Below, one piece after another: positions 31,849-60,123 of a DNA stretch of 64,000 nt (the stretch's first letter is position 1; each line of letters opens with the position of its first letter). The translations under genes and the position numbers were made by a program. Source of the stretch: a virus (lineage: Duplodnaviria; Caudoviricetes); IMG/VR virus record IMGVR_UViG_3300014208_000024, positions 308,284 to 372,283 of that record; one strand, written 5' to 3'. The notes under the pieces are model-generated. The model did no database searches, was not told the origin of the DNA, and was given only the letters and a program-made list of their open reading frames with translations.

Positions 31849-31985
31849 AATTTTGTTTTTCTATAAATAGTTAGAAAAAATAAAATCAATCAAAAAATAT
31901 AAGTTCGATTTTCTAACCAATTACACTCCCTCCACTTTTTCAAAAAATTCGCTTTATATACTCACAAACAAAAAAAATAAATTTT

Positions 31986-32330
31986 ATGGCAAAAGTATTT
32001 AACGCACCTGCGGAACTTAAAGTTCCTGATCTCAATTGGAAAGACATCCCACAGTATCATAAAGACTGTGATAAGTATTTTGAAGATTTGAAAAAACTTC
32101 TGATCGAAAAGTACAAACGCACTGGCGCAAACGTTGGGGAAATAATTAAATTCCCTGTTGCTGATGGTTATGCTTTATATATGGTTGCAGGAATGAAACC
32201 TGTTGAATTGATACATATTGAGATCGGTGATGCTTGGCACTTTCAGTATGCCAATCGTCTTACGGCAAAAGATGTTCAGCAAAAAATTGATCAGGAAAAG
32301 GCTCTTGCGAAATTGTTCTCCAAAAAGTAA
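31986..32330 (+). CDS. Hypothetical protein
   Basis: GEIIKFPVADGYALYMV motif; class-A promoter. Confidence 0.75.
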   Translation: MAKVFNAPAELKVPDLNWKDIPQYHKDCDKYFEDLKKLLIEKYKRTGANVGEIIKFPVADGYALYMVAGMKPVELIHIEIGDAWHFQYANRLTAKDVQQKIDQEKALAKLFSKK

Positions 32331-32338
32331 TTTAAAAA

Positions 32339-32418
32339 GGGTGATTAACATTAATGCAAGAACAGTATTCTTGAAATAGAAGTAACGCTGCGTGTGGGTT
32401 CGATTCCCACATCACCCA
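32339..32418 (+). ncRNA. tRNA-like element (intact acceptor stem and T arm, degenerate D and anticodon arms)
   Basis: GGGTGAT/ATCACCC-A acceptor; GTGGG-TTCGATT-CCCAC T arm; CTTGAAA loop and ACG-CTG-CGT variable arm resemble tRNA-Ser(TGA). Confidence 0.6.
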
Positions 32419-32466
32419 CTTTTCCAAATAATTCGCTTTATATAGTCATAATCAAAAATAAACATC

Positions 32467-32988
32467 ATGAAAATAGAACTTAAGAATGTGAAAATTAGCG
32501 AAAGCTTAAGTGAAGAAACTACAGCTTTTACAGCCGACATATTTGTGAATGGGAAAAAAGCGGGATATGCAAGAAACGACGGCAGAGGAGGGTGCACTGA
32601 ATATCACTCATTTCCTGAAACAAGAGAATTGTTTGATAAAGCTGAAAAATTTGCTTTGACACTTCCAAAAAAGGTTGAGGAATTTAACGGGAAAATATAC
32701 GAGTTCAATTCAAATTTAGAACTTATTATTGATAACATAATTGAGAACGTTCTCAAAGAAAAAGACAAAAAGAAACTTGAAAAAGCTTGTCTTAAAGGAA
32801 TATTTAAAGGAAATACATTTGATTATTCAGGCGTTTCTTACAAACTTCCCCTGAAAGATATTGTTAGAATTCATAAAGAAAAAGGTGTTGCACATCTTCA
32901 GGGGGCTTACAACAAAATGAAGTCTGAACTTAAACAAGGAGAAAAAATACTAAATACGAACTTAGAAGAATTGGGGATTATACTTTAA
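32467..32988 (+). CDS. Hypothetical protein
   Basis: ORF behind class-A promoter. Confidence 0.75.
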   Translation: MKIELKNVKISESLSEETTAFTADIFVNGKKAGYARNDGRGGCTEYHSFPETRELFDKAEKFALTLPKKVEEFNGKIYEFNSNLELIIDNIIENVLKEKDKKKLEKACLKGIFKGNTFDYSGVSYKLPLKDIVRIHKEKGVAHLQGAYNKMKSELKQGEKILNTNLEELGIIL

Positions 32989-33017
32989 TCCCCCGTTCTT
33001 CTTTAAAGTTATTTTAT

Positions 33018-33326
33018 ATGGCACAGCATTATGAATTAAAACGGCACATCGAGCCTAAGATCTTTAAAAGCGTAGATCGGGTTGCTGAATATTATGTAAG
33101 AGCATCAAAGTATATCACACGCTATTTAAATGATTATACAGAGGAGGTTGTATATAAGAAGAAGACAACCAAACTCCCCGACGAATATAAGATCTTTGCA
33201 GAGGATCACCTCGTTTTAAAAGTTGGGAAATATGATCTTCAAGAAACCAAGGATCTCTTTGGATTATATCTCGAATGTCATATCGATGAAAAAGGGAAAG
33301 TACTTTCTATCTATATTGTAATGTAA
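33018..33326 (+). CDS. Hypothetical protein
   Basis: ORF following previous gene. Confidence 0.65.
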   Translation: MAQHYELKRHIEPKIFKSVDRVAEYYVRASKYITRYLNDYTEEVVYKKKTTKLPDEYKIFAEDHLVLKVGKYDLQETKDLFGLYLECHIDEKGKVLSIYIVM

Positions 33327-33386
33327 AAACTCTCCCCCACTTTTTCAAAAAATTTGCTTTATATAGCCATAACGAAAAACTTCATC

Positions 33387-33587
33387 ATGGAATATGTAAT
33401 AAAACTTTTAAGATATGATTTGGAATGCCTATGCGAAGATTTATCTTCATCTGAGATAAAATTAAATATTTCAGTAAAAAACAAAATTGAAGATAATATA
33501 AAATTTTATTCTGAAGAAATAAAAATACTTTCAACAAACATTGAGCAGGTGAAAAAAGCTATTAAAATTTTAACTGACAAAAAATAA
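33387..33587 (+). CDS. Hypothetical protein
   Basis: Start MEYVI behind class-A promoter. Confidence 0.65.
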   Translation: MEYVIKLLRYDLECLCEDLSSSEIKLNISVKNKIEDNIKFYSEEIKILSTNIEQVKKAIKILTDKK

Positions 33588-33644
33588 CAAATCCCACTTT
33601 TTCAAATAATTTGCTTTATATAGTCATAACAAACAAAAAATCAA

Positions 33645-33830
33645 ATGGAAAAAGAACTTGGAATTGGCGTTGTAACAGATAAAGGGACTGTCATGGATAT
33701 TGATGTAAGTTATAAGCCTAAAATTAAAGGCCAAACAATTTATTATGTTACAAAAACTCCTGAAAAATATGCAAAAGGAGTAAATTGTGGAATATGGAAG
33801 TTGAAAGAAGAACTTGTTTTACTTCAATAA
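33645..33830 (+). CDS. Hypothetical protein
   Basis: ORF behind class-A promoter. Confidence 0.65.
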   Translation: MEKELGIGVVTDKGTVMDIDVSYKPKIKGQTIYYVTKTPEKYAKGVNCGIWKLKEELVLLQ

Positions 33831-33924
33831 TAAATCCCACTTTTTCAGAAAATTCGCTTTATATACTTGTTAATGTAAAAAAAAATAAATAACTTTGCTA
33901 ATTATTAACTAAATTTTTTTAAAA

Positions 33925-34737
33925 ATGGGATACAATAGTGAGTTCAAAGGGGGCTTCCTCCTTAACAAAGCATTGGACGATGTAACGTTCAATTTCTTAA
34001 ATAAATTGGCCAACACTCGCAGAATGGCCAGAAAAGTAGATGCCAAATATGGTGTCCAAGGTGAATTTTATGTTGACGGCACAGGAGATTCTGGCCAAGG
34101 ACGTGAACCAAATGTTATTGATTTTAACGTAGCTCCAAGAACACAGCCAGGTTTATGGTGCCAGTGGGTTCCTACAGAAGATCGCAGAGGCATTGAGTGG
34201 GACGGTGGAGAAAAATTTTATGCCTATATTCAGTGGATTGAATATATTATTTCCAAAGTTCTTGCCCCCAGAGGATATGTTCTCAACGGTAATGTAAAAT
34301 GGAGAGGTGAAGATTTTGATGACACTGGTGTTATTGAAATCCATGACAACATGGTTCAGGGAAAACGTTTGATTGTGGATTATTCAATCAACAAACTTTT
34401 GGGGGCTGTTGGCGCTTCTACTGGTGTAAAAAATTCCACTCCATCTGTTTCTACCAATAACAAACGCAAAGCTGGTGTAAGACCTGATGGAACAAAAACA
34501 AAACATCAGATTTACAAAGAGAAGCAAGAAGCTGCAAAAAAACTTCTTGAAGATCAGATTGCAAAATTAGAAGCTGATCTGAAAGCTGCAGATGAGGAGC
34601 TGAAAAAGAAAAAAGTAGCAATTACAAAGAAGCTGACCGTAAATGATGTTGTTCTGGATCAGATCAGGAAAAAAGCTGAATTTGGAAGTACACTGGAAGA
34701 TTTCAAAAAAACACTGAGGAATTTACTGGAAGATTAA
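33925..34737 (+). CDS. Hypothetical protein with C-terminal coiled coil
   Basis: PGLWCQWVP...WDGGEKFY motif; class-A promoter. Confidence 0.8.
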   Translation: MGYNSEFKGGFLLNKALDDVTFNFLNKLANTRRMARKVDAKYGVQGEFYVDGTGDSGQGREPNVIDFNVAPRTQPGLWCQWVPTEDRRGIEWDGGEKFYAYIQWIEYIISKVLAPRGYVLNGNVKWRGEDFDDTGVIEIHDNMVQGKRLIVDYSINKLLGAVGASTGVKNSTPSVSTNNKRKAGVRPDGTKTKHQIYKEKQEAAKKLLEDQIAKLEADLKAADEELKKKKVAITKKLTVNDVVLDQIRKKAEFGSTLEDFKKTLRNLLED

Positions 34738-34798
34738 ATTCCCACTTTTTTAAATAATTTGCTTTATATAGTTGTTAGATAAATTAAAACTTAAGAAA

Positions 34799-35425
34799 AT
34801 GAAAGACGTAAAAGAGATGAGTAAGAGTGCAATAGCCGATTTGGAATTGGTTAACGCCATCAAAAGTGAAGACAAAAGAAAATCAGAAAAGGCTTTTTCT
34901 CTGCTGTTTAAAAAATACCATGATACTATGCTGTTTCACTTCAGGGGATTGGTAAAAGATGAAGAAGATGCAAAAGAAATTGTTCTCGAAGCTTTTGTAA
35001 AAGTAAGTTCAAACATTGAAAAATTCAATCAGGATTCCGCTGTGTTCAGCACATGGTTATTCAGACTTACACAGAATCTTTTCATCGATAAACTGAGAAA
35101 GAAAAAAGATGATGTTGTTTCTCTTAGCGACATGGCTACATATGACGAAGATAGCCATACTTTCGAGTTCGACTTTGAAGATTGTGATGGAACTCCTGAA
35201 TCTAAAATACTGGATTCAGAAAAAGAAAGAAGAGTAAATGAAGTTCTTTCAAAAATGGAAAATCAGGAACTTGCCGAAATGATAAAAATGAGATATTTCC
35301 AAGGTCTGTCATACGAAGAAATCTCTAATGTTACGGGTAAACCTTTGGGAACTATAAAAGCTTTTATCTTCAGAGCAAAACAATTTCTGAAAAAAGACCT
35401 TAAAAGAGCTAAATTAAATTTTTAA
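34799..35425 (+). CDS. ECF (sigma-70 group 4) RNA polymerase sigma factor
   Basis: Region 2 AFSLLFKKY...DAKEIVLEAF...FSTWLFRL..N..ID..RK; region 4 MRYFQGLSYEEIS..TGKPLGTIKAFIFRAK. Confidence 0.9.
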   Translation: MKDVKEMSKSAIADLELVNAIKSEDKRKSEKAFSLLFKKYHDTMLFHFRGLVKDEEDAKEIVLEAFVKVSSNIEKFNQDSAVFSTWLFRLTQNLFIDKLRKKKDDVVSLSDMATYDEDSHTFEFDFEDCDGTPESKILDSEKERRVNEVLSKMENQELAEMIKMRYFQGLSYEEISNVTGKPLGTIKAFIFRAKQFLKKDLKRAKLNF

Positions 35426-35493
35426 AATTCTACTTGATAATTTTTAAAGAAATCCTTATATTTACTTATAAGGATTTTTTTTTATTTATTATT

Positions 35494-36000
35494 ATGGTAC
35501 CACAACAAGCAGGCCGTCCCCTCACTCCAGCAGAAAAGAAACAATATCTTTTGGCCAAATACACAAAGAGAGACTACAATGTAGGTGATTTAGAAAGTTG
35601 TAAAAAATATGCAGTATATTTTTGTCCAAATTTGGAACTTGTAAAAGAATGGAAATTATTACATGTATGTGGGAATCTGAATGAAGCAAAACAACAGATT
35701 TTTTGGAGAAAACAATACATGAGTACAAAGGATGGGGATTTAATTATAGATAATTGTGAAGATTTTAAGACATGGAGAGATGAAACAAAAAATGTTGACT
35801 CTAACGGGAATGCTTATGAGCCAGGAGAAGAATTAATGAAAATTGATTATAATGCTCCAGGAAATATGATTCAGGTAATAGCAAGTTCGACTCCAGCTCA
35901 ACAAAATTCTAATGGATTCAAAGGATTTGGGTTTTATACAGGAATTGAGATTGGAAATTATCAAGGTTTTTATAAAATTGAGGAAATTTACGAAGTATAG
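35494..36000 (+). CDS. Hypothetical protein (TATTTAT promoter)
   Basis: Likely start MVPQQ behind TATTTATT. Confidence 0.7.
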   Translation: MVPQQAGRPLTPAEKKQYLLAKYTKRDYNVGDLESCKKYAVYFCPNLELVKEWKLLHVCGNLNEAKQQIFWRKQYMSTKDGDLIIDNCEDFKTWRDETKNVDSNGNAYEPGEELMKIDYNAPGNMIQVIASSTPAQQNSNGFKGFGFYTGIEIGNYQGFYKIEEIYEV

Positions 36001-36057
36001 TAAAATAAACTCCCACTTTTTCAAATAATTTGCTTTATATAGTCAAAAGTTATTAAT

Positions 36058-36519
36058 ATGAAAAAAATTATTGAAGCTACGTATCATTTATTGTTCTTTA
36101 AAACTTATACCCACTTTTCAAGGTGGTTTGAAATTAGTAGCGGCATACTTGTTTGGTTAAATATTGCATTATTAGTTTGTATAATGAGTGGATGTGTAAA
36201 AGAAGGCCCCAGTGGATATGCAGAAATTTCAAGTGTTGAAGAACAGGAAAAATATGAAGTCAGTCATGATTCAACTTGGTCCAATGCTGATTCTATTGAA
36301 TATGGTTTACTTCCAGTTTGGTATAAAGTAAAAAATACTGGCTTCGGAGAAATACATAAATATTCCATAACATTCGCTGTACTTCTTACAAATGGAAACT
36401 ATATATACACTGAATCTTTTGGTACTGGAGTTAGAGATTATTCAACATCTTTAATATACATAGAAACCAACGGGCAAGAAGCGCAAGATGTTTTAATAAC
36501 CAATCTTCAAGTTGAATAA
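36058..36519 (+). CDS. Putative lipoprotein/membrane protein
   Basis: Hydrophobic segment ending MSGC; class-A promoter. Confidence 0.6.
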   Translation: MKKIIEATYHLLFFKTYTHFSRWFEISSGILVWLNIALLVCIMSGCVKEGPSGYAEISSVEEQEKYEVSHDSTWSNADSIEYGLLPVWYKVKNTGFGEIHKYSITFAVLLTNGNYIYTESFGTGVRDYSTSLIYIETNGQEAQDVLITNLQVE

Positions 36520-36579
36520 TTTGTTTTATCAACAAAATAATTACTTGGTTTTAACTTTTTTGTACTATTTATAAATAAA

Positions 36580-37518
36580 ATGGATACAAAAGAATTTATA
36601 GAAAAATCGAAAAAAATTCATGGGGATAAATATGATTATTCAAAAAGCATATATGTAAAGTCAAAGATAAAATTGACAATCATTTGTCCAATTCATGGAG
36701 AATTTTTTATGGCACCACAATCGCATTTGTATGGAAAAAACGGATGTCAAAAATGTGCAAAAATAAAAGGTCTACAAAATTTAATTAATAATTCAAATAA
36801 AAAAAGAATAACATTTGAATCATTTTTAGAAAGAGCAAAAAATATTCATAACAACAAATATGAATATGAAAAAATTGAAATTAAAAATTTTTATCAAAAA
36901 GTTCGAATTAAATGCCCTGTTCATGGATGGTTTATTCAATCTGTAGCTGATCATTTAAGAAAGCATGGATGTATTGAATGTCACAGACCAAATAGAGGAA
37001 GCTCTCAACGATTGCTGTTAGGAGAATTTATAGAAAAAGCAAATAATATTCATAATAATATATATGATTATTCAAAGGTAGTTTACACTAATAATCATAC
37101 AAAAATAATAATAGGGTGTAAAACCCATGGAGATTTTCAACAAACACCTGCATCTCATTTAAAATCTAATGGATGTCCAATTTGCAAAAGTTCTAAAGGA
37201 GAAATAAAAATAAAAGAATTTTTAGAAAAAAGAAACATTTTGTTTAAACAACAAAAAACATTTTCTGGATGTAAAAATAAACAACTTTTGCAATTTGATT
37301 TTTATCTTCCTGATTTAAATTCTTGTATTGAATATGATGGAATGCAACATTTTAAAGCAATAGAATATTTTGGAGGGGAAAAAGGTTTAATTGAAACTAA
37401 AAAGCGTGATATTATAAAAAATGAATATTGTAAACAAAACAATATTTCTTTATTAAGAATAAAGTACAATGAAAAAATAGAAAATAAAATTACTTCTTTT
37501 TTAAAAACTTTTTTTTAA
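36580..37518 (+). CDS. DUF723-repeat homing-endonuclease-like protein with C-terminal PD-(D/E)XK domain
   Basis: Three KxIHGxKYDYSK...I.CP.HG.F...HL...GC..C repeats; FDFYLPDLNSCIEYDGMQH. Confidence 0.85.
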   Translation: MDTKEFIEKSKKIHGDKYDYSKSIYVKSKIKLTIICPIHGEFFMAPQSHLYGKNGCQKCAKIKGLQNLINNSNKKRITFESFLERAKNIHNNKYEYEKIEIKNFYQKVRIKCPVHGWFIQSVADHLRKHGCIECHRPNRGSSQRLLLGEFIEKANNIHNNIYDYSKVVYTNNHTKIIIGCKTHGDFQQTPASHLKSNGCPICKSSKGEIKIKEFLEKRNILFKQQKTFSGCKNKQLLQFDFYLPDLNSCIEYDGMQHFKAIEYFGGEKGLIETKKRDIIKNEYCKQNNISLLRIKYNEKIENKITSFLKTFF

Positions 37519-37635
37519 ATTTCGGTTTGCTCGTAAACCCCACAGTAAATCCACAAATCCAAAACTCCCACTTTTTCAAATAATTTGCTTTATATACTCA
37601 CATAAACTAAATATTAACAATTTAAATTTAAAAAA

Positions 37636-38475
37636 ATGGTACGTGAATTAAGTGAAAAAATAGGCTGGGAAATTGAAAGTAAAAATATTTTCTCAGGAGA
37701 TCAAATAGGTCTCGAAAAAATTTTAGGGTACAAAGCTGTTACTCGTAATGATAACGGAGGAGTTCTCTCAGTTATGAAAAAATCTTATTCCCCCATGACC
37801 AACACAGAGTTTTTAGAAGTGGTTTCAAAAATTCAAGAAATATCTGGATTTAAACTTGCAGGGTTTAATGAATTCAGACAAGGGAGGAAAGTTTTGGGGT
37901 TCCTTGAAAATGATAAAGAGGATTTATATATTGGAGGACATAAAATAAAAGATTATTTTTTAGTTGGAAACAGCTTTGATGGATCTACATCTTTCTTCCA
38001 AGGTACATCGACAATTCTAATCCGCTGTCAAAATCAGTTCAGCCAAATTAATGTAATGAACAAAATCCGCCATACGAAAAGTATAGGAAGAAAACTTGAA
38101 GAATTTTATTCCTACTTAGATTTTTATTTCAACAAAAGAAATGAATTATATAAAACTTTCGAGCAACTTGGAAATATTACCCTCACAGAAAATTTACGTG
38201 AAAATCTTATTAAAGCTGCCCTTGGAGTTAAAGAAGTTACTGACAAAGAAATATCAGCTCGTAAACAAAATCAAATCGACCTGCTGAGATCAACAATACT
38301 CGCAGAAACTTTGGAACTGGGCGAAAATATGTGGGGGGCATTTAATGGAGTTACAAAATATACAACCCACGAAATCGAAACAAAAAACCCCATCTTCGGA
38401 AATGTCTTCGGAAATCAGGCCGATATCAATAACAGAGCAATGGAATTTGCAACCAAAGAACTGGTAATGTCATAA
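37636..38475 (+). CDS. DUF932/DUF945-family protein
   Basis: KAVTRNDNG..LSV..KSY.P..N, NSFDGS, IRCQNQF, IRHT and NMWGAFNGVTKYTTH motifs. Confidence 0.8.
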   Translation: MVRELSEKIGWEIESKNIFSGDQIGLEKILGYKAVTRNDNGGVLSVMKKSYSPMTNTEFLEVVSKIQEISGFKLAGFNEFRQGRKVLGFLENDKEDLYIGGHKIKDYFLVGNSFDGSTSFFQGTSTILIRCQNQFSQINVMNKIRHTKSIGRKLEEFYSYLDFYFNKRNELYKTFEQLGNITLTENLRENLIKAALGVKEVTDKEISARKQNQIDLLRSTILAETLELGENMWGAFNGVTKYTTHEIETKNPIFGNVFGNQADINNRAMEFATKELVMS

Positions 38476-38538
38476 AGAAACTGGGGGAGGAAACTCTCCC
38501 CCACATTTTTTAAATGTTTAACTTAATAATTTATAATC

Positions 38539-38967
38539 ATGCATAAATCATTTGTAATTTTACTTTCGATTTTATTTAGCTTTATTATATTTGTAGACAT
38601 AGGAACTATTGCATCTATCGCATATAGAGATAATCAAAGAATCAATCAAGAAATAACTGTAAACAAAGACAGTTTCGAAGATCAATATCCCAGACTTGGA
38701 CCATTTATTACCATTGAAGATTTTATACATGTAGATAGTATTTATAAAGCAGAAATGGACAGGATAAATAAATTAAAAAACAAACCTTTTAAAATGATTA
38801 CAAAATGTAAATTTATTCCCGAAGTTGAATTTGTTGATTATGGAACATTCAAAGAAATAGATAGTCTTAAATGTATTCGACAAAAAGAAATGGAAAATCT
38901 TATCAAGCAAGAGAAAGAACAAGAAAAAGAACTTGATCTATTAAATAATAAACCCTGTAATAATTAA
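38539..38967 (+). CDS. Membrane-anchored hypothetical protein
   Basis: N-terminal TM helix. Confidence 0.65.
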   Translation: MHKSFVILLSILFSFIIFVDIGTIASIAYRDNQRINQEITVNKDSFEDQYPRLGPFITIEDFIHVDSIYKAEMDRINKLKNKPFKMITKCKFIPEVEFVDYGTFKEIDSLKCIRQKEMENLIKQEKEQEKELDLLNNKPCNN

Positions 38968-39049
38968 AAAGCCAAAGGGGGAGGAAACTCTCCCCATTTT
39001 TTTCTCTTTTTTTTTGCATATTTAATGGAAATTCAAAACACCATTATCT

Positions 39050-39286
39050 ATGAAACCAAAAGAAACATTTAAGGAAATGCTCACTCTTTGCTATGAAGAA
39101 GATTTCCCAGAATTACACAAAGAATTAATTTCACTTGAAAGTGAAACAAAAAAGATCAGAGACTCGTATAAGTATGAAAAAGCAATGGAGGAAATATTTA
39201 ATCTTATACCCCTATTTTCTGAAGACTTTCCCCAGGAAATAATGTTGCAACTGGAAAAACTATATGAAGATTGTATAGAAGAATAA
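39050..39286 (+). CDS. Hypothetical acidic protein
   Basis: ORF after terminator. Confidence 0.65.
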   Translation: MKPKETFKEMLTLCYEEDFPELHKELISLESETKKIRDSYKYEKAMEEIFNLIPLFSEDFPQEIMLQLEKLYEDCIEE

Positions 39287-39301
39287 CTTAATTTAAATAA
39301 A

Positions 39302-39904
39302 ATGAAAAAAATCTCTGGAGACGTTATCGCTCACCTCCTGTTTGGAGTGGCTGCAATTGGTTTATTAATCGGTGGAGCTATTATGCTAATAGCATCTTTC
39401 TTTACAGCTCTCCCTATATTTAATGCTTTTATCGTATTAACACTGGGAGCTATCCTATATGTGGGAGTTAGACTTTATTTTGTATTCGGCGATGTACTGG
39501 AATCTATAACTAAATTAATAGAAATTTCTTCCTCTCCCCAGATAAATAAGAACGGTAGAATATATAAAAATGGATTGTTAACAAAACAAATGGGATTTGG
39601 AGACCTGCCAACTCATGATCTATCAAAAATTCCACATCCTGCACCAGGATTAATTGATGAAATTCTTATTGATGAAAATACAACCCCAGAGGAAATTGAA
39701 AATATTAAAAAGAAATATCCTGGGTTCTCTCATGCAATTGATGAAATACTGGAAAAGGTTGGGGGGATTTCACGTACATCTACTTTACCCCTATCTTCTC
39801 TCTCTTCTTTTAAATTAGAAAAACTTCTTCAGGAAGCTATTGATAAAAATGATTTTGAAAGAGCTGCTGAAATAAGAGACGAAATTAATAGAAGGAATAA
39901 GTAA
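39302..39904 (+). CDS. Membrane protein with C-terminal UVR (UvrB/UvrC) motif
   Basis: Two N-terminal TM helices; LEKLLQEAIDKNDFERAAEIRDEI. Confidence 0.7.
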   Translation: MKKISGDVIAHLLFGVAAIGLLIGGAIMLIASFFTALPIFNAFIVLTLGAILYVGVRLYFVFGDVLESITKLIEISSSPQINKNGRIYKNGLLTKQMGFGDLPTHDLSKIPHPAPGLIDEILIDENTTPEEIENIKKKYPGFSHAIDEILEKVGGISRTSTLPLSSLSSFKLEKLLQEAIDKNDFERAAEIRDEINRRNK

Positions 39905-40071
39905 CCTTTTAAAAATTAATCCGTATAAGATAGTAAGAGTAATTTATATAACAAGTTGTATCTACTAATCGCATGATTAAAACCCCACACCCAAAATTTG
40001 CTGGGGTTTTTTTATTCCCACTTTTTAAAATAATTTGCTTTATATAGTTATTGTTAAAAAAAACTAAAGCT

Positions 40072-40242
40072 ATGTTTGAAAAACTAATCTGGAAACTGTT
40101 TAAAATGAACAGGAATGATTTCAATAAGGCAGATAAGAAAATTGAAAAGATACTGCTTGAAGTTTATGAAAAAGGTAAAAAGGATGGCAAAAAAGAAATG
40201 TCAAAATTAATGTCGATATTAGTTAAAAAAACAATATTATGA
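40072..40242 (+). CDS. Small hypothetical protein
   Basis: Start MFEKL behind class-A promoter. Confidence 0.65.
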   Translation: MFEKLIWKLFKMNRNDFNKADKKIEKILLEVYEKGKKDGKKEMSKLMSILVKKTIL

Positions 40243-40628
40243 AATTAGAAATTAAGCAATACAAATATGAAAAAATAGAGGTGTCATCAAAAGAAATTGA
40301 ATTGCCAACTGAAACCTCTTACTTTTTTCAAACTGGAATAAGACGTTCAATAAAAATAACTCCACGTTTTACAACTTGGAATAAAAAACACTATAATAAA
40401 GAAGAAGAGTTATATGAACTTATAGTTGTTTGTTTATACCAAAATTTTGAATGTAAAGCAGAAAAGTTCAGCTTAAGAGTTAATGAATTAGAAAATATTT
40501 ATTATTCTGAAAAAGACGAAAATAAAGAATTTGTAACTGCATTGATTGATGGTTGTTTTAATAAAAGAACTAAAGAACAATTTGATGCTGATTTTAAACA
40601 CATATTTTCAGAAATGCAGTGTCTTTAA
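40239..40628 (+). CDS. Hypothetical protein
   Basis: ATGA overlap with previous gene. Confidence 0.7.
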   Translation: MKLEIKQYKYEKIEVSSKEIELPTETSYFFQTGIRRSIKITPRFTTWNKKHYNKEEELYELIVVCLYQNFECKAEKFSLRVNELENIYYSEKDENKEFVTALIDGCFNKRTKEQFDADFKHIFSEMQCL

Positions 40629-40629
40629 A

Positions 40630-41160
40630 ATGAAAAAATTTCTCCTGTTCATATTCAATTTATTCAATAAGAAATCTCTGGAGCCCCCAAAACCAGAACT
40701 CATCGTCATTAGCAAAAAATCAAATAGCGGAAGTACAATACAAAACCATTTTGTCTATACAGCTGCAAACCCCAGTATTAAATCTCTGGCCGCTTCTGTG
40801 CTTCTTAAAAATGATCTTATGTTTCAAGATGTAGACTACCTGGAAGATGAACTTCATAAATGGCTCGAATTTCGTGAAAGATATCTATATAAACAACTGA
40901 TATTAAAAAAAGGTCTGATATGTACCTATTGTGGAAAACCCCACCTGGAAATCGGAGGTAGAACCCCCAAAGATATTATCGCTAATAACAAAAACCCAAA
41001 CCTGGCAACTATAGACCATATTACAGCGCTCGCTAATGGGGGATCAAAGTATGATGAAGATAATCTATGCGTTAGCTGTAAAAAATGCAACAGAAACAAA
41101 GGAACAACCCCAGTGGAAGAATTTAAAAGAAAATTAAATTTTAAAAATTTTAATCAATAG
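40630..41160 (+). CDS. HNH endonuclease
   Basis: CTYCG...TIDHITALANGG....DNLCVSCKKCNRNKG. Confidence 0.85.
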   Translation: MKKFLLFIFNLFNKKSLEPPKPELIVISKKSNSGSTIQNHFVYTAANPSIKSLAASVLLKNDLMFQDVDYLEDELHKWLEFRERYLYKQLILKKGLICTYCGKPHLEIGGRTPKDIIANNKNPNLATIDHITALANGGSKYDEDNLCVSCKKCNRNKGTTPVEEFKRKLNFKNFNQ

Positions 41161-41498
41161 TTGTAACCTTTTTTAATTTTTCTCGTATTAATAGGTAACT
41201 TGGATAACTTGGACGCCCGTCCTTAAACTATTCAAGTCTTTGTATTCTTTGTCTGTTTTATTTTTTAGAAACCCCTGAGCTTGTCCCTCTGGGGTTTCAG
41301 TTTTTTAAAAACTTTTTTTTAAATTTCGGTTCCGTCGTAAACCCCCACAAACAATCTCTTTTTCTATTTTTTATTTTTCTTTTTTTAAATTTCGGTTTGC
41401 TCGTAAACCCCCATAGTAAAACCCCCAATCTAAAATTCCCACTTTTTTAAAAAATTTGCTTTATATAACTTTTGCCTTTTTTCTGCGTATAAACCATT

Positions 41499-41774
41499 AT
41501 GGAAATATCAGTAACAATTGAATCTATAAAACCAATTACCCTGGACCAGCTGTCCAGAGAAAAAACATACGTGGTTTTTAACTCAACATCATTCTATATT
41601 CACTCTGGGGATGATCTAAAGTGTCTGACAAACCAGGATGACATTAACATGACAACATCTCAGCTCTTTGATAATATAGGCCCCGCAGGATCGCATTACG
41701 TAGCTGAATGTGAATCTATGGACGCTGCACTGGATTACTTTAATTCAGGTCACTGGAGATCATATAGTGAATAA
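41499..41774 (+). CDS. Hypothetical protein, last gene of the array
   Basis: Behind overlapping class-A and TATAAC-N16-CGTA motifs. Confidence 0.65.
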   Translation: MEISVTIESIKPITLDQLSREKTYVVFNSTSFYIHSGDDLKCLTNQDDINMTTSQLFDNIGPAGSHYVAECESMDAALDYFNSGHWRSYSE

Positions 41775-42429
41775 TTATAACTAAGTTTTGTTACAGAGCC
41801 CTTGGGGATTATCCCAGCTTATTTTCATATCTGTTTTAAAAACTTTTTTTTTAATTTCTTTTTTGTCGTATACGCAGTTTTCCAAAAACTAAATAAAAAA
41901 TAGAATTAGAATAGAACTACATCTTCTCTACCAATGTGCGTCACTTCAGATTTTTTATTCCTGGGCCCAATTTTTTCTCAGGGACCTGTAACATTCTCAA
42001 TAAAATCACGTACCAATTAGTACAAGGGGGAAACCCCACAATTTTTAGATGACAACATTTAAAAACTAACGAATAAGAAAGGAGTATACTATGAAAAGGT
42101 AATTTGAAAATAATCTGATAGACTTTTGGGAATGAAACAATATAGTTGTCTCTCCCCAGAAGAAAACAATAAAGTTATTATTGTTATCAGGATTACTATT
42201 TTTTGATCGCTAATTTTTGGGGATTATTTCCCCCTAGGATAACTACACCTCTTCCTTAAAAAAATGAAGTGAGTTCTCCCCACAAAATAACTATGCCCAA
42301 AAATATTTAAAATTTGTAAATTTATTTAAGGTTTACATAGGGGGATTTCTATAACCAAAAACTCTGGGGGCTTACTCTCATCCAAAACCCCCCACTATTT
42401 ATTGTAAATTTATAATTTCACTTATTCTT

Positions 42430-42447
42430 TTGTTCCACGTGGAACAA
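42430..42447. promoter_or_regulatory. parS: parS-type ParB binding site
   Basis: Perfect palindrome TTGTTCCACGTGGAACAA matching the chromosomal parS consensus TGTTYCACGTGRAACA, inside a 1.2-kb gene-free region. Confidence 0.8.
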
Positions 42448-43057
42448 CTATATCCCCCTCAGTCATTTTAAAAATATTTAAAAGGTCCCTTATTTTTTTA
42501 AAAATCAAAGGTGAGTATTTGGGGGCACTGAGTGTGAGTCAGTTGCGTCCCACCCCAGACCCCAAAAAGTATTTTTCACAACAACAATTTTTTCTTCTAA
42601 CTTTACATTTAACCATTTATCTAAAAACCAGTTAGTTACTTATTTAAAAGTGCAAATAAGTGGGATAAAGTGGTAAATCTCCCCAGATTTCCCCCATAGT
42701 TTTTCCCTCAATCTTTCCCCAGAAATTCCCCATTAATAATTTGGGTAATTCTCCCTTAATATTCTGTAACAATATTATGTTATAAATGTTACATTTCTCC
42801 CCAGGAAATTCTGCAGGTAATTTAAGTAATTTCTGTCGCATATTTAGCATATATATGTGACAAGCAACATGCAACATCTCCCTGATAATTAATTAGAAGT
42901 GGGGGTTAAAATAGCGGAGGGGGGTCGGCGGATTAAAGAGGTAATTCTCCCCATAATATTAAGAAGTTAAAATTGGTACTTCTCCCCATGGTTTTTATCT
43001 ATCTTTGTTTTTTGAAATAATTTTGTTTATATTTATTTTATATAAAACAAAAATAGA

Positions 43058-43783
43058 ATGAGATCGATCACAGAAGAAAGGTTAGCACGACAATTAATAA
43101 GGGAAGAAATAAAGAGGTGTATTATATATGAGGGATTAATTTTTTCTTATTCTCCAGCTTTTATATTTACTAGTTTAAAGGGCATGGGTTATAGTGATAT
43201 TTTTTACAATAAGCACAGGAAGGTATTTAGTATAAATTTCGCTTTGGGTTCTGATAATGAATCAAGGTATAGGGATCTGGATCATTTTTTAGACAATGTT
43301 TGTGGATGGTTTCATGGTTCGAGTATTTCTAACAAAAATGTTTTACCAAACAAAACAAGTTTCATTGATATAATATCTGGGAATGTTTTTCTTCAGTATG
43401 AAGCGAAGTTTAATATAAGAGTTGAAAAATTACCAGGGAAGATATATCATTTAACCACGGAGGAAAAGTTAAAAAAGATATTAAAAGTTGGGTTGACTCC
43501 AAAGAGTTCTATTTTGTTATTAAATTACAGAGACAGGATATATTTTTCTTTGAATTATGATTCATTAATAAATTTTTCCAAACAAAAATCTTCCATTACG
43601 AATAAAAATGATTTTATTATTTTAGAGGTAGAAACTTCTAAAATAAATCATGGGACAAGGTTTTTTGAAGATCCAAATTTTTTGAATGGGGTTTACACTT
43701 TAGAGAATATTCCCCCATATGCAATTAAGCCTTTTATTAAAATAAAGGTTGATGGAGAATTGGTGGATAAAGTTTTCATATAG
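43058..43783 (+). CDS. ADP-ribosyltransferase-fold (Tpt1/ART-like) protein with N-terminal tag
   Basis: KIYHLT....KILKVGLTPK...RIYFS...ILEV...GVYTLENIPP pattern; TATTTAT promoter. Confidence 0.55.
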   Translation: MRSITEERLARQLIREEIKRCIIYEGLIFSYSPAFIFTSLKGMGYSDIFYNKHRKVFSINFALGSDNESRYRDLDHFLDNVCGWFHGSSISNKNVLPNKTSFIDIISGNVFLQYEAKFNIRVEKLPGKIYHLTTEEKLKKILKVGLTPKSSILLLNYRDRIYFSLNYDSLINFSKQKSSITNKNDFIILEVETSKINHGTRFFEDPNFLNGVYTLENIPPYAIKPFIKIKVDGELVDKVFI

Positions 43784-44335
43784 ACCTATCGGTCTTTGCT
43801 TTTTTGAAATATTTTTCTTATATTTGAATTAAAAACATTTATGGAATCACAAAAGAACAAACCTATAAAAAGGATTAGGATAACTAATAAGTTAATGGAT
43901 TTACTGGTATTAAAACTTTTCAGGTCTGAGCAAATAAACAGAGATCGTTATTTAAAGAACAAAATGAATGGAGAGTGGGAGATGGAAGTTCCTCCATTGG
44001 TAATAGATTTAAACAACAGATTAAACATTTCTATAAAGGATATACATAGGTATATAAGGAAGCAAGAAGAAAGCATGAATTCTTTTTCTACAGTGATTGG
44101 TTATCCTTATATTTCTTTGGTATCAAACAATTCGGAGAATGATTTACAGATTTTCATTAATTCTTTTAGTTATGATAGTGATGGGGGAATTTCCTGTAAT
44201 GATATAAGGGCATATTCAAGATATTTTATTATGCATTATGACAAAAAGAAGAAGTATACGTTTTATAATAGATAAATAAAAAACCCCCACCCAAAGGTTT
44301 CAGATTTTCATATAGACCTATCGGTCTTTGCTTTT
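43773..44335. repeat. 31-bp direct repeat flanking gene 43841-44275
   Basis: TTTTCATATAGACCTATCGGTCTTTGCTTTT at 43773-43803 and 44305-44335; shorter cores near 47070 and 52851. Confidence 0.85.
43841..44275 (+). CDS. Hypothetical protein
   Basis: ORF behind TTTG-N19-TATATTTG promoter. Confidence 0.7.
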   Translation: MESQKNKPIKRIRITNKLMDLLVLKLFRSEQINRDRYLKNKMNGEWEMEVPPLVIDLNNRLNISIKDIHRYIRKQEESMNSFSTVIGYPYISLVSNNSENDLQIFINSFSYDSDGGISCNDIRAYSRYFIMHYDKKKKYTFYNR

Positions 44336-57916: not shown

Positions 57917-58431
57917 AGTAATTCTTTCTTTATTAAAAAAGTATTCATTATTCCTTCAATTTTTAAATAATTATTCATATTCATTTTATTAAACATCTTA
58001 TCGTAAATTAGTTTTCTTTTGTCTATTGCTTGGTAAAATATTATATCAGGATTATGTTCTTCTAAAAACTTTTTAATGATTGCGAAAACTGAATTAAATA
58101 CAAACAATTCCTCTTTATAATTTGTTTTTATGTTATCAATAGGAGTATTGTTTTCATCACATGTTCCCCAGCTTAAAAAAAATATATTATTATTTGAAAT
58201 TATAACATCGTTTATTTCATCTTTTTTTGTAAGAGCAAGAAGTTTATTTGCAGGAGTTTTTTCTAATTTGCTTTTTGGAACATCAAACAACACACAGTAA
58301 TTATTGTTTTTTGTTAAAAAACTATATGTAAATGAATTTTCTGTTTTTTTAAAAAGTAAATTTTTAGGAATTTCTAAATTGTCAAAAATTTCATTTAAAA
58401 TTTCTCTTATTATTTTTTTAATTTTTTTCAT
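57913..58431 (-). CDS. Hypothetical protein with N-terminal tag (related to 51765)
   Basis: Start MKKIKKIIREILNEIF; TATTTAT upstream. Confidence 0.7.
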   Translation of the reverse strand: MKKIKKIIREILNEIFDNLEIPKNLLFKKTENSFTYSFLTKNNNYCVLFDVPKSKLEKTPANKLLALTKKDEINDVIISNNNIFFLSWGTCDENNTPIDNIKTNYKEELFVFNSVFAIIKKFLEEHNPDIIFYQAIDKRKLIYDKMFNKMNMNNYLKIEGIMNTFLIKKELL

Positions 58432-58533
58432 AATAATAAATATAAAAAAAAACTTAACAAATGTCAAATTAAAATCCCCCAAAAGGTTTCAAATGTTCCT
58501 TTGTGGGGGATTTTATTTATATGAATTCTTTTT

Positions 58534-60123
58534 TTAAAGAGTTGTAATTGAAAACATAAGAGTTCTTAGTGTTATAGCACCCGTGGATGATTGATTTTGT
58601 ACTCTAATATCAAAATAATCATTAGGTGACATATCGTTAATAGCATTAAATGAAAATGGATATGGTTGTGCGTTAGTTGCGCATCTAACATCTAAGTCTT
58701 GAAGTCTAACATTTCCATTTTTATATAATGCAACAGAACAAACTTGGTTTGTACCAACTACACTTAAATCACCAGAAATCATAAATGTCCCCTTTCTTGT
58801 TATTGATGGAAGATAAGTGAAGAGTTGAGTTTCAGCCCCACCGCTAAATTTAATCATATCAACAACTACAATAGATGATTGTAATACAGATGCTTTAAAA
58901 TAATTAGTAGTATTAGCTATTGTTGTTGCCGTTGTGTTTCCACTCACCCACACCCAACATTCTGGTTTATAGTTTCTCAATCCAGCATTATTTTCATATC
59001 TAACATCTGATTGTGTTGATGAAGTAAATGTTAAACCGCTTATATAATTTCCTTCCCCATAAAATGCGTTTCCTGTTGCATAATGGAATTCTGGTTTAAC
59101 TGTATTGTCGATATAATTAACTCCAGTTTGTCCAGTCAAAACATTAAAAAGAGTATTTTGAATTGCATAATGATTTGTTGTACCTGTTGGATTTAAATAA
59201 ATAGAATTTGTGCAATTATTTATTGTCAATTCTGACATTAAAATAGAGCCACCGTGAACCCAAACTCCGTTTACACAATTTTCAATTATAGAATCAAAAA
59301 ACCAAAATTCAGAATTTGCGTCAAGTTCTATTGCTTTGAAAAATCCATTAAAATAACATTGATGAATTTCTCCGTATAAATTATCTGTTCCACAATCTAA
59401 ACAACATTGATCATCAATAGAAGAAAGTCCACTTAAACCATAAAAAGACATTCCTTTGAAGTCAGCTTTTGTTTTTATATCAAAAAATGGAGTGGCTGAC
59501 ATTGCGGTTGTGGCACTTAAAACTGTTCCTTCTGTTCCAAAACTTTCAAGCATTAATGGATATGCACAATCTATTGTAATTTTTTCTGAAATGTTGTATG
59601 TGCCAGGATTTATTCTTATTCTTTTTGGACCATCTGCATAGTTGTTGCAATAATCAATACAATCTTTAATTGAAGTGAATAGTTGTGTACCACCAATTGA
59701 TACATCAATTGTTTCGTGAACAACCCTTTCGTTCATTTTTAATCTGTATAAGTATGATGTAGCTCCGCTGCTTCCATATTTATGTGCTATTAAATCCGCT
59801 CTATCATTTGAATTTCTTAGGCAGAAGTTCGGATCTCTTGATATTATTTGATTAGATGTAGTTCTAATAACAATTTCATTTCCAGATTGCACCAATCTTG
59901 GCTTAACAAAAGTCATTATTTTACCAGAATTCAAAGAACTTGCATCTGGAATAGTTATATTCATGTTTCCACCAGTATCATCAATGTGATATATGGTATT
60001 ATATTGAGAAACCGTCCAAGTACCAGCGGACACATATGTACAACCATTTGTTCCAGTTGATGTACCAGATGTTCCGCTAAATGTAAGATAACACAGGTTG
60101 TATGGTTGTGATAAATAGCTCAT
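58534..60123 (-). CDS. Putative virion structural/tail-associated protein with beta-helix-like region
   Basis: S/T/G-rich, repeated short beta strands (F.G....I......F.D..I.NC..GV), phage-fibre-like C-terminal domain. Confidence 0.5.
   Translation of the reverse strand: MSYLSQPYNLCYLTFSGTSGTSTGTNGCTYVSAGTWTVSQYNTIYHIDDTGGNMNITIPDASSLNSGKIMTFVKPRLVQSGNEIVIRTTSNQIISRDPNFCLRNSNDRADLIAHKYGSSGATSYLYRLKMNERVVHETIDVSIGGTQLFTSIKDCIDYCNNYADGPKRIRINPGTYNISEKITIDCAYPLMLESFGTEGTVLSATTAMSATPFFDIKTKADFKGMSFYGLSGLSSIDDQCCLDCGTDNLYGEIHQCYFNGFFKAIELDANSEFWFFDSIIENCVNGVWVHGGSILMSELTINNCTNSIYLNPTGTTNHYAIQNTLFNVLTGQTGVNYIDNTVKPEFHYATGNAFYGEGNYISGLTFTSSTQSDVRYENNAGLRNYKPECWVWVSGNTTATTIANTTNYFKASVLQSSIVVVDMIKFSGGAETQLFTYLPSITRKGTFMISGDLSVVGTNQVCSVALYKNGNVRLQDLDVRCATNAQPYPFSFNAINDMSPNDYFDIRVQNQSSTGAITLRTLMFSITTL

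Follow-up and report, generated by a model that had tools for sequence, protein, structure and literature searches.

A perfect 18-bp palindrome, TTGTTCCACGTGGAACAA, which by its sequence is a real parS site of the chromosomal type, is located in the 64 kb at the end of a 372,283-bp virus genome (an IMG/VR record, CheckV 100% complete, ~30% G+C). The palindrome lies at positions 42430-42447 (unstranded) of this 64,000-nucleotide stretch, referred to here as the window; all positions are those of the window unless indicated otherwise. The genome is that of a phage, with capsid, tail sheath, and replication genes of the T4 type. Chromosomal-type parS is the site at which ParB nucleates and is loaded as a CTP clamp. 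Judging from the sequence, the palindrome may well be a working loading site that recruits the ParB of the host, as in phage phi29, a reading in which we place middling confidence. Recruitment of host ParB had been proposed in an earlier examination of the letters of the window (here called the sequence-only reading) and, given the published precedent of phi29, remains by analogy the best explanation of the site.

The 16-bp core of the palindrome, TGTTCCACGTGGAACA (42431-42446, unstranded), is of the chromosomal parS type and matches the parS2 and parS3 sites of Pseudomonas aeruginosa at 16 of 16 positions (PMC4368675). In strain PAO1, these two sites are perfect palindromes that have been mutated and tested experimentally (PMC4368675), so the description of a perfect chromosomal-type parS at 42430-42447 in the sequence-only reading was borne out, with a core identical to that of validated Pseudomonas sites. 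P. putida is listed with the same core as its parS, and the site of Myxococcus xanthus differs from it by one base (PMC7022226). By the customary cut-off, a parS site has at most two mismatches to the canonical TGTTTCACGTGAAACA; the core differs from that sequence by two symmetric changes, T5C and A12G, and so falls inside the limit. A genome-wide count, which the earlier reading had proposed, returned a single site in 372,283 bp, even with the search pattern TGTTNCACGTGNAACA. The sole other site within two mismatches of canonical parS is asymmetric (genome position 97829). A single parS is reported in PMC4368675 to be enough for ParB function in P. aeruginosa. Contigs from a second, independent groundwater study (run X2) are identical across 42405-42614, and the palindrome is therefore not an assembly artifact.

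As a palindrome, the site is unremarkable: there are 23 palindromes of at least 16 bp in the genome and 23 in shuffled sequences. The number of parS words expected per genome was 2e-5 under a first-order Markov model; calculated from real half-site counts, it was ~4e-4 for the exact spelling and ~1.5e-3 for the T/C family. Our screen covered ~250,000 windows, and an occasional chance match to parS is expected at that scale; since rare chance matches are then likely, we examined the frequency of the 18-mer in viral DNA at large. The exact 18-mer was present in at least 119 IMG/VR contigs, which fell into 67 clusters of unrelated flanks. The reversed palindrome, used as a control, was present in no IMG/VR contig, and a control in which CACGTG was changed to CAGCTG and both outer halves were kept was present in 7. 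The 18-mer is thus at least 17-fold over its matched control in viral DNA, indicating that chance accounts for at most ~1/17 of the viral cases. Other candidate signals were discarded. An excess of the GTTCCAC half-site, 2.8-fold under the first-order model, vanished under higher-order Markov models (51 observed versus 46 expected); the extended similarity of the parS flanks to L006, L070, and L065 was only AT-rich sequence plus the site itself; and the right half of parS (GGAAC) could not be read as an ECF -35 box, as no CGTA is suitably placed here and the spacing to CGTAT is variable in G073, a T4-type fragment described below.

We looked for a protein that could read the site. At an E value of ≤1, searches of the whole genome in six frames found no match to ParB_N (PF02195), PF17762, TIGR00180, or the ParA-type AAA_31 (PF13614), and the ParB of G073, used as a query against the phage genome, detected only a homing-endonuclease-like ORF. 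The absence of parAB that had been noted for the window thus extends to all 372,283 bp, and the search for a phage parB offers no support for the alternative, also raised earlier, of a distally encoded ParB. In a phage with no detectable ParB, the ParB of the host is the only candidate reader. The plasmid-prophages P1 and N15 have phage-encoded ParB with parS sites of their own; since no ParA was found in the phage, it does not carry a partition cassette of the P1 type.

Shine-Dalgarno motifs precede 1.8% of the ORFs, compared to 6.3% of random positions; the leaders are rich in A. Bacteroidota and their phages are known for leaders of this kind, and the host is probably a member of Bacteroidota; with translation signals of this kind, a host with a canonical ParABS system is plausible. 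A TTTG-N17-21-TAnnTTTG promoter was tried as a further clue to the host, but the number of occurrences genome-wide (51) did not differ significantly from that in shuffled sequence (43 ± 4). The one gene examined for a hint of hydroxymethyl-cytosine encodes a true thymidylate synthase and gives no sign of cytosine hypermodification. The frame of this gene (genome positions 276355-277548; L339:1501-2694) has 398 to 418 aa and is matched by ThyA models in three stretches, which suggests that it carries an insertion of ~100 residues.

The exact 18-mer is also found in the genomes of at least 120 bacterial species from many phyla. Bacteroidota made up 24 of the 80 titles listed, and the genomes included metagenome-assembled genomes (MAGs) from groundwater, some of them Bacteroidota and others candidate-phyla bacteria. 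A frame of the GidA/MnmG family lies within 3 kb of the site at 61 of the 120 bacterial loci listed, and in a Flavobacteriaceae MAG, the start codon of mnmG is 8 nt downstream of the site. Six Bacteroidota genomes with the 18-mer have 2 to 12 clustered sites each, nearly all in the exact spelling. When Bacteroidota, the candidate host phylum, were sampled evenly, the exact spelling was present in 11 of 151 genomes (~7%) and the control in none. One groundwater Bacteroidetes MAG, G081 (L257), has an unusually regular chromosomal parS array, with seven sites arranged in tandem with an exact period of 99 bp (C24:13202-13810) and five more on other contigs.

In the phage, the palindrome is situated in a gene-free gap of 1,283 nt (41775-43057, unstranded) bounded by the last good unit of promoter plus ORF in an array and by an ORF at 43058-43783. 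We found no ORF of at least 90 aa in the gap under code 11, with TAG read as Q, or under code 4, so a gene-free region, given as ~1.2 kb in the sequence-only reading, stands at 41775-43057 under three genetic codes. A 77-aa frame on the minus strand (42644-42877), which is the reverse complement of repeats described below, is probably not a gene: all of its neighbors are on the other strand, and its ATG abuts a GGGAG word with zero spacing. The gap ranks first in size in the genome if this frame is set aside and second if it is counted. A tblastx comparison of the gap with the genome revealed no paralogue or pseudogene remnant of its interior.

Other viruses that carry the site mostly lack ParB as well. 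A match to ParB_N was found in only 4 of 63 parS-bearing IMG/VR records searched, and among those that are at least 90% complete, 8 of 10 had none. A 30-nt query around the site matched 99 records of cultured phages, including 23 Pseudomonas phages. Phage vB_PpS_SYP (OQ183418.1, L328) has six sites within ~8 kb around the record ends, UAVern (MZ605293.1, L329) has four, and Ep020 (OQ603351.1, L330) has three; KPP25 (AB910393.1, L331) and Pyxpy01 (PP179310.1, L334) have one each. In all five of these phages, the control palindromes are absent and no ParB_N match was found. The sites of the Pseudomonas phages are mostly intergenic where annotated, amid small genes, and their spelling is that of the validated parS of the host genus. 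We found no paper describing parS on these phages. One large cluster in IMG/VR has 35 members (L004-L012, L111, and others), with genomes of ~55 to 106 kb, several of which have direct terminal repeats. These phages keep the exact 18-mer within a 312-aa ORF that belongs to no known family. They resemble a Bacteroides uniformis phage in part of the genome, and no ParB_N was detected in the five records searched, three of which are complete. Exact parS matches of 18 to 20 nt also occur in several single-stranded DNA microviruses of 4.5 to 7 kb from animal guts (Microviridae, “bajarodmic virus,” “Dulem virus,” and microviruses of chicken and pig). Some of these matches are in or beside the replication-initiator gene, and the genomes cannot encode ParB.

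The sole capsid-related T4-type record that we found among the parS-bearing contigs is G073, the IMG/VR record behind L120, a T4-type fragment of ~126 kb with 31% G+C whose capsid protein is 53% identical over the C-terminal half. It has five exact copies of TGTTCCACGTGGAACA within 3 kb (C1:84263-87234), all of them intergenic, and every copy has a terminator hairpin and CGTATAT promoter words next to it; the cluster is adjoined by an anti-restriction gene of the ArdC-like kind. G073 also has its own 306-aa protein with ParB_N and a weak HTH match (110065-110985), encoded 24 kb from the sites; these two regions are covered by L336 and L337. Its parS region has no homology in the phage genome studied here.

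A search for TGTTNCACGTGNAACA in the 16 records that have a related capsid protein found no site. Two of these records are complete genomes, of 519 kb and 294 kb, and a third, of 222 kb, is 87% complete. Five of the 16, with two of these three complete or nearly complete genomes among them, also lack the genes on either side of the gap. A blastn search with 41000-44000 had no match among cultured phages, an IMG/VR search seeded with the 241-aa protein (43058-43783) and the DUF932 protein from the neighborhood yielded no relative, and the exact class-A promoter pattern had no match in IMG/VR. The sole metagenomic relative of the 241-aa ORF (L327) has that gene alone in common with the phage and shows dense coding DNA there, with no parS. 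The sole other copy of the gap stretch (run X2) is identical, leaving zero variation by which to gauge selection. The gap is lineage-specific DNA, with no syntenic region in the relatives. The sequence-only reading had held that a lack of conservation in relatives would count against it. The site is indeed missing from 16 of 16, so far as this can be judged, and the flanking genes are missing there too; the absence thus counts against an ancient, clade-wide role and not against ParB binding. As for the 241-aa ORF itself, it belongs to a paralogue family with at least three members in the phage (the others at genome positions 58182-58931 and 133516-133866); its homologue on the unrelated metagenome contig (L327) is 53% identical, and the family has no Pfam or PHROG match.

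These comparisons bear on a serious rival to recruitment of host ParB, namely, that the site is the remnant of a lost ParB-parS module like that of G073 or was captured recently. In its broader form, this explanation holds that the palindrome is neutral, whether as the last site of a lost module, as a captured scrap of host or plasmid DNA, or as a chance palindrome in decaying noncoding DNA, and that any ParB binding is without consequence. Since G073, with its related T4-type capsid, encodes its own ParB in addition to a five-site cluster, the site here could be the last remnant of such a module. The single copy, the absence of the site from 16 of 16 relatives, the restriction of the gap to one lineage that alone has the flanking genes among the relatives compared, and the degenerate copies of promoter repeats in the gap would all fit. 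So would the occurrence of the matched control palindrome in 7 viral contigs and the size of the screen, as an event of 1 in 1,000 will occur somewhere among ~250,000 windows. However, in a relic whose flanks had had time to disappear, the palindrome should have decayed too, and here 18 of 18 bases are perfect, yet the flanks match no bacterial or viral parS locus beyond ~22 to 39 AT-rich bases. There is, moreover, no homology to the ParB or the parS region of G073, and the at least 17-fold excess over the control in viral DNA argues against chance. We consider a neutral origin of the site possible but rather unlikely.

The gap has contents besides the palindrome. The promoter array that it follows is real and comprises nine to ten promoter-type repeats (31931-41467). 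Within the gap are a degenerate T-rich repeat of family D5 (41832-41876, plus strand), which elsewhere precedes the class-A promoter element, and a degenerate class-A promoter-type element of family D3 (43009-43052, plus strand) directly upstream of the ORF at 43058-43783; the array and its last degenerate “element B” were thus correctly recognized in the sequence-only reading, as were the G/C homopolymer tracts, for which we counted 10 runs of at least 5 nt in the gap compared to 0.69 expected (~15-fold). Four copies of the direct repeat GGTAAnTCTCCCCA (42672-42685, 42744-42757, 42940-42953, and 42975-42988, all on the plus strand) make up an iteron-like cluster at 42672-42988, in which bare TCTCCCCA/TCTCCC words are also found at 42796 and 42877 (plus strand). 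Further TCTCCCCA words occur in the gap at 42151 and 42275 (plus strand). Of the 11 plus-strand copies of TCTCCCCA in the genome, 6 are inside the gap, where ~0.04 would be expected, and all copies in the gap are on the plus strand. Given the enrichment of repeats and G/C runs, the gap probably has some cis function other than parS, and the TCTCCCCA repeats probably bind a factor other than ParB. Just downstream of the gap, we observed an exact 31-nt direct repeat with a short hairpin (AGACC-TATC-GGTCT) at 43773-43803 and 44305-44335; the copies are located 3' of two successive ORFs, each followed by a promoter-type element, and the repeat is probably a shared terminator-promoter junction.

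The sequence-only reading had also taken the region for an origin, and this was not supported. The relaxed DnaA-box-like word TTTTTCACA is present where it was reported (42572-42580, plus strand), but it carries no significance: the gap has one box of this family with 0.37 expected, and none is perfect. As the word is at chance level, we left it out of any origin. The GC-skew analysis that had been suggested placed the cumulative minimum at ~175 kb of the genome, where two gene arms diverge, and showed no inflection at parS, which is 47% of the genome away from the minimum and ~3 kb before the point where the arms converge (window position ~45.4 kb). No initiator-like, Rep-like, or HTH family was recognizable in the ORFs on either side of the gap, namely, an HNH endonuclease, a 91-aa ORF, and the 241-aa ORF. 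A+T content reaches 85% in just one 60-nt window of the gap, which overlaps the downstream promoter-type element. Of the features that define an iteron origin, the direct-repeat array is therefore present, whereas an adjacent initiator gene, an AT-rich unwinding element, DnaA boxes above chance level, and a skew signal were not found. Nor does the site belong to an origin-proximal cluster of the kind expected for chromosomal parS, being single and without a cluster of DnaA boxes.

These contents of the gap raise a second alternative to a parS role, that the palindrome is read by another DNA-binding factor and resembles parS by coincidence. It might be the operator of a dimeric DNA-binding protein of the phage or, together with the TCTCCCCA repeats, part of a replication origin or some other cis element. 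The strongly enriched same-strand repeats and the ~15-fold excess of G/C runs would be in keeping with such an element, as would the location of the gap between two promoter-type elements, and the T4 origin oriE has direct repeats. Against this, a coincidental match to parS at 16 of 16 positions has an expectation of ~1e-3 or less, there is no second copy or cluster of half-sites to mark a phage regulon, and no initiator-like or HTH gene is recognizable beside the gap. An origin is further disfavored by DnaA boxes at chance level and the lack of a skew inflection. We therefore regard a reader other than ParB as improbable.

Signals at the RNA level were sought in the same region. A search of 41000-43500 with Rfam found no family in the gap, its lone match being a sub-threshold one to U6atac at 43060-43164, outside the gap, and folds of the whole gap were uninformative, with no consistent signal across it. 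It is highly improbable that the palindrome serves as a hairpin (7-bp stem and 4-nt loop) in a noncoding transcript of the gap, such as a processing or termination signal: although the subregion 41956-42315 folds somewhat better than shuffled sequence (z down to -3.6 in sliding windows), windows bearing the palindrome have z values of about -1 on both strands, no T-run follows the palindrome on its 3' side, the terminator scan omits it, Rfam has no match within the gap, and a hairpin would leave the identity with parS unexplained.

We return to the reading of the palindrome as a loading site for host ParB. The support for a parS role comes from the identity with validated sites, the uniqueness of the site in the genome, its noncoding setting, the absence of parAB, and the over-representation of the 18-mer in viral DNA. 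Counting against a role maintained by selection are the presence of only one site, its absence from 16 relatives, and the occurrence of the exact spelling in only ~7% of the sampled genomes of the candidate host phylum. We infer that the ParB of the host reads the palindrome to the benefit of the phage. During infection, host ParB would nucleate on the palindrome and form a CTP-bound clamp that closes and slides across the neighboring kilobases, so that the phage DNA would acquire a partition complex of the host type. By analogy with phi29, the likeliest benefit would be that, in cells that grow slowly, a stalled phage genome is positioned or inherited; alternatively, the phage may gain from the loading of SMC onto its DNA or from titration of host ParB.

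The closest published case is the virulent Bacillus phage phi29, which is reported to have five parS sites for the host protein Spo0J and to use the host segregation machinery for entrapment in the spore (PMC2731898); Nf, another virulent Bacillus phage, keeps parS sites too (Meijer et al. 2005, as summarized in PMC2731898). The principle that a phage can make use of host parS is therefore already known. Like phi29, the phage described here has no ParB of its own and carries parS of a host type, in this case as known from the sequence. In contrast with the five sites of phi29 and their retention in Nf, however, it has one site, and its relatives have none. In addition, the benefit to phi29 is entrapment in Bacillus spores, whereas the present phage is a 372-kb phage of the T4 type whose host signals point to non-sporulating Bacteroidota. 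Because the probable host forms no spore, any benefit must differ from that of phi29.

The 16-bp word is the same as that of chromosomal ParABS systems (the Spo0J sites of B. subtilis, parS1 to parS10 of P. aeruginosa, and the consensus of Livny et al. 2007). Chromosomal parS sites, however, are clustered near oriC, often by mnmG/gidA, with parAB on the same replicon, while the phage site is alone, without parAB, and near no recognizable origin. As a phage that lacks ParB and has the exact parS spelling, this phage resembles vB_PpS_SYP, UAVern, Ep020, and KPP25. The first three of these have 3 to 6 sites within ~7 to 8 kb that are common to related phages, a mark of selection that the site described here does not bear. 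The phage and G073 have related T4-type capsids, similar G+C contents, and copies of one 16-mer located between genes, but unlike G073, the phage has neither a ParB-like protein of its own nor five sites.

A more far-reaching possibility is that parS and the iteron-like cluster together constitute a minimal maintenance module, by which this T4-type jumbo phage would persist as a slowly replicating, ParB-partitioned episome in starved, non-sporulating groundwater hosts. We offer this as a speculation to which we give little credence. If it were true, the module would provide a carrier state for a class of phages that is regarded as strictly lytic.

The wider pattern is the more useful lead. In viral DNA, the parS word shows an enrichment of at least 17-fold, for the most part in viruses without ParB, and cultured Pseudomonas phages carry 3 to 6 sites of the host type; unlike the uncultured groundwater phage, these phages make the question testable in laboratory strains. 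If host ParB truly loads at the palindrome described here, the strategy of phi29 would reach beyond spore-forming hosts to a giant phage of the T4 type, and lytic phages may make more general use of the segregation and SMC-loading machinery of their hosts.
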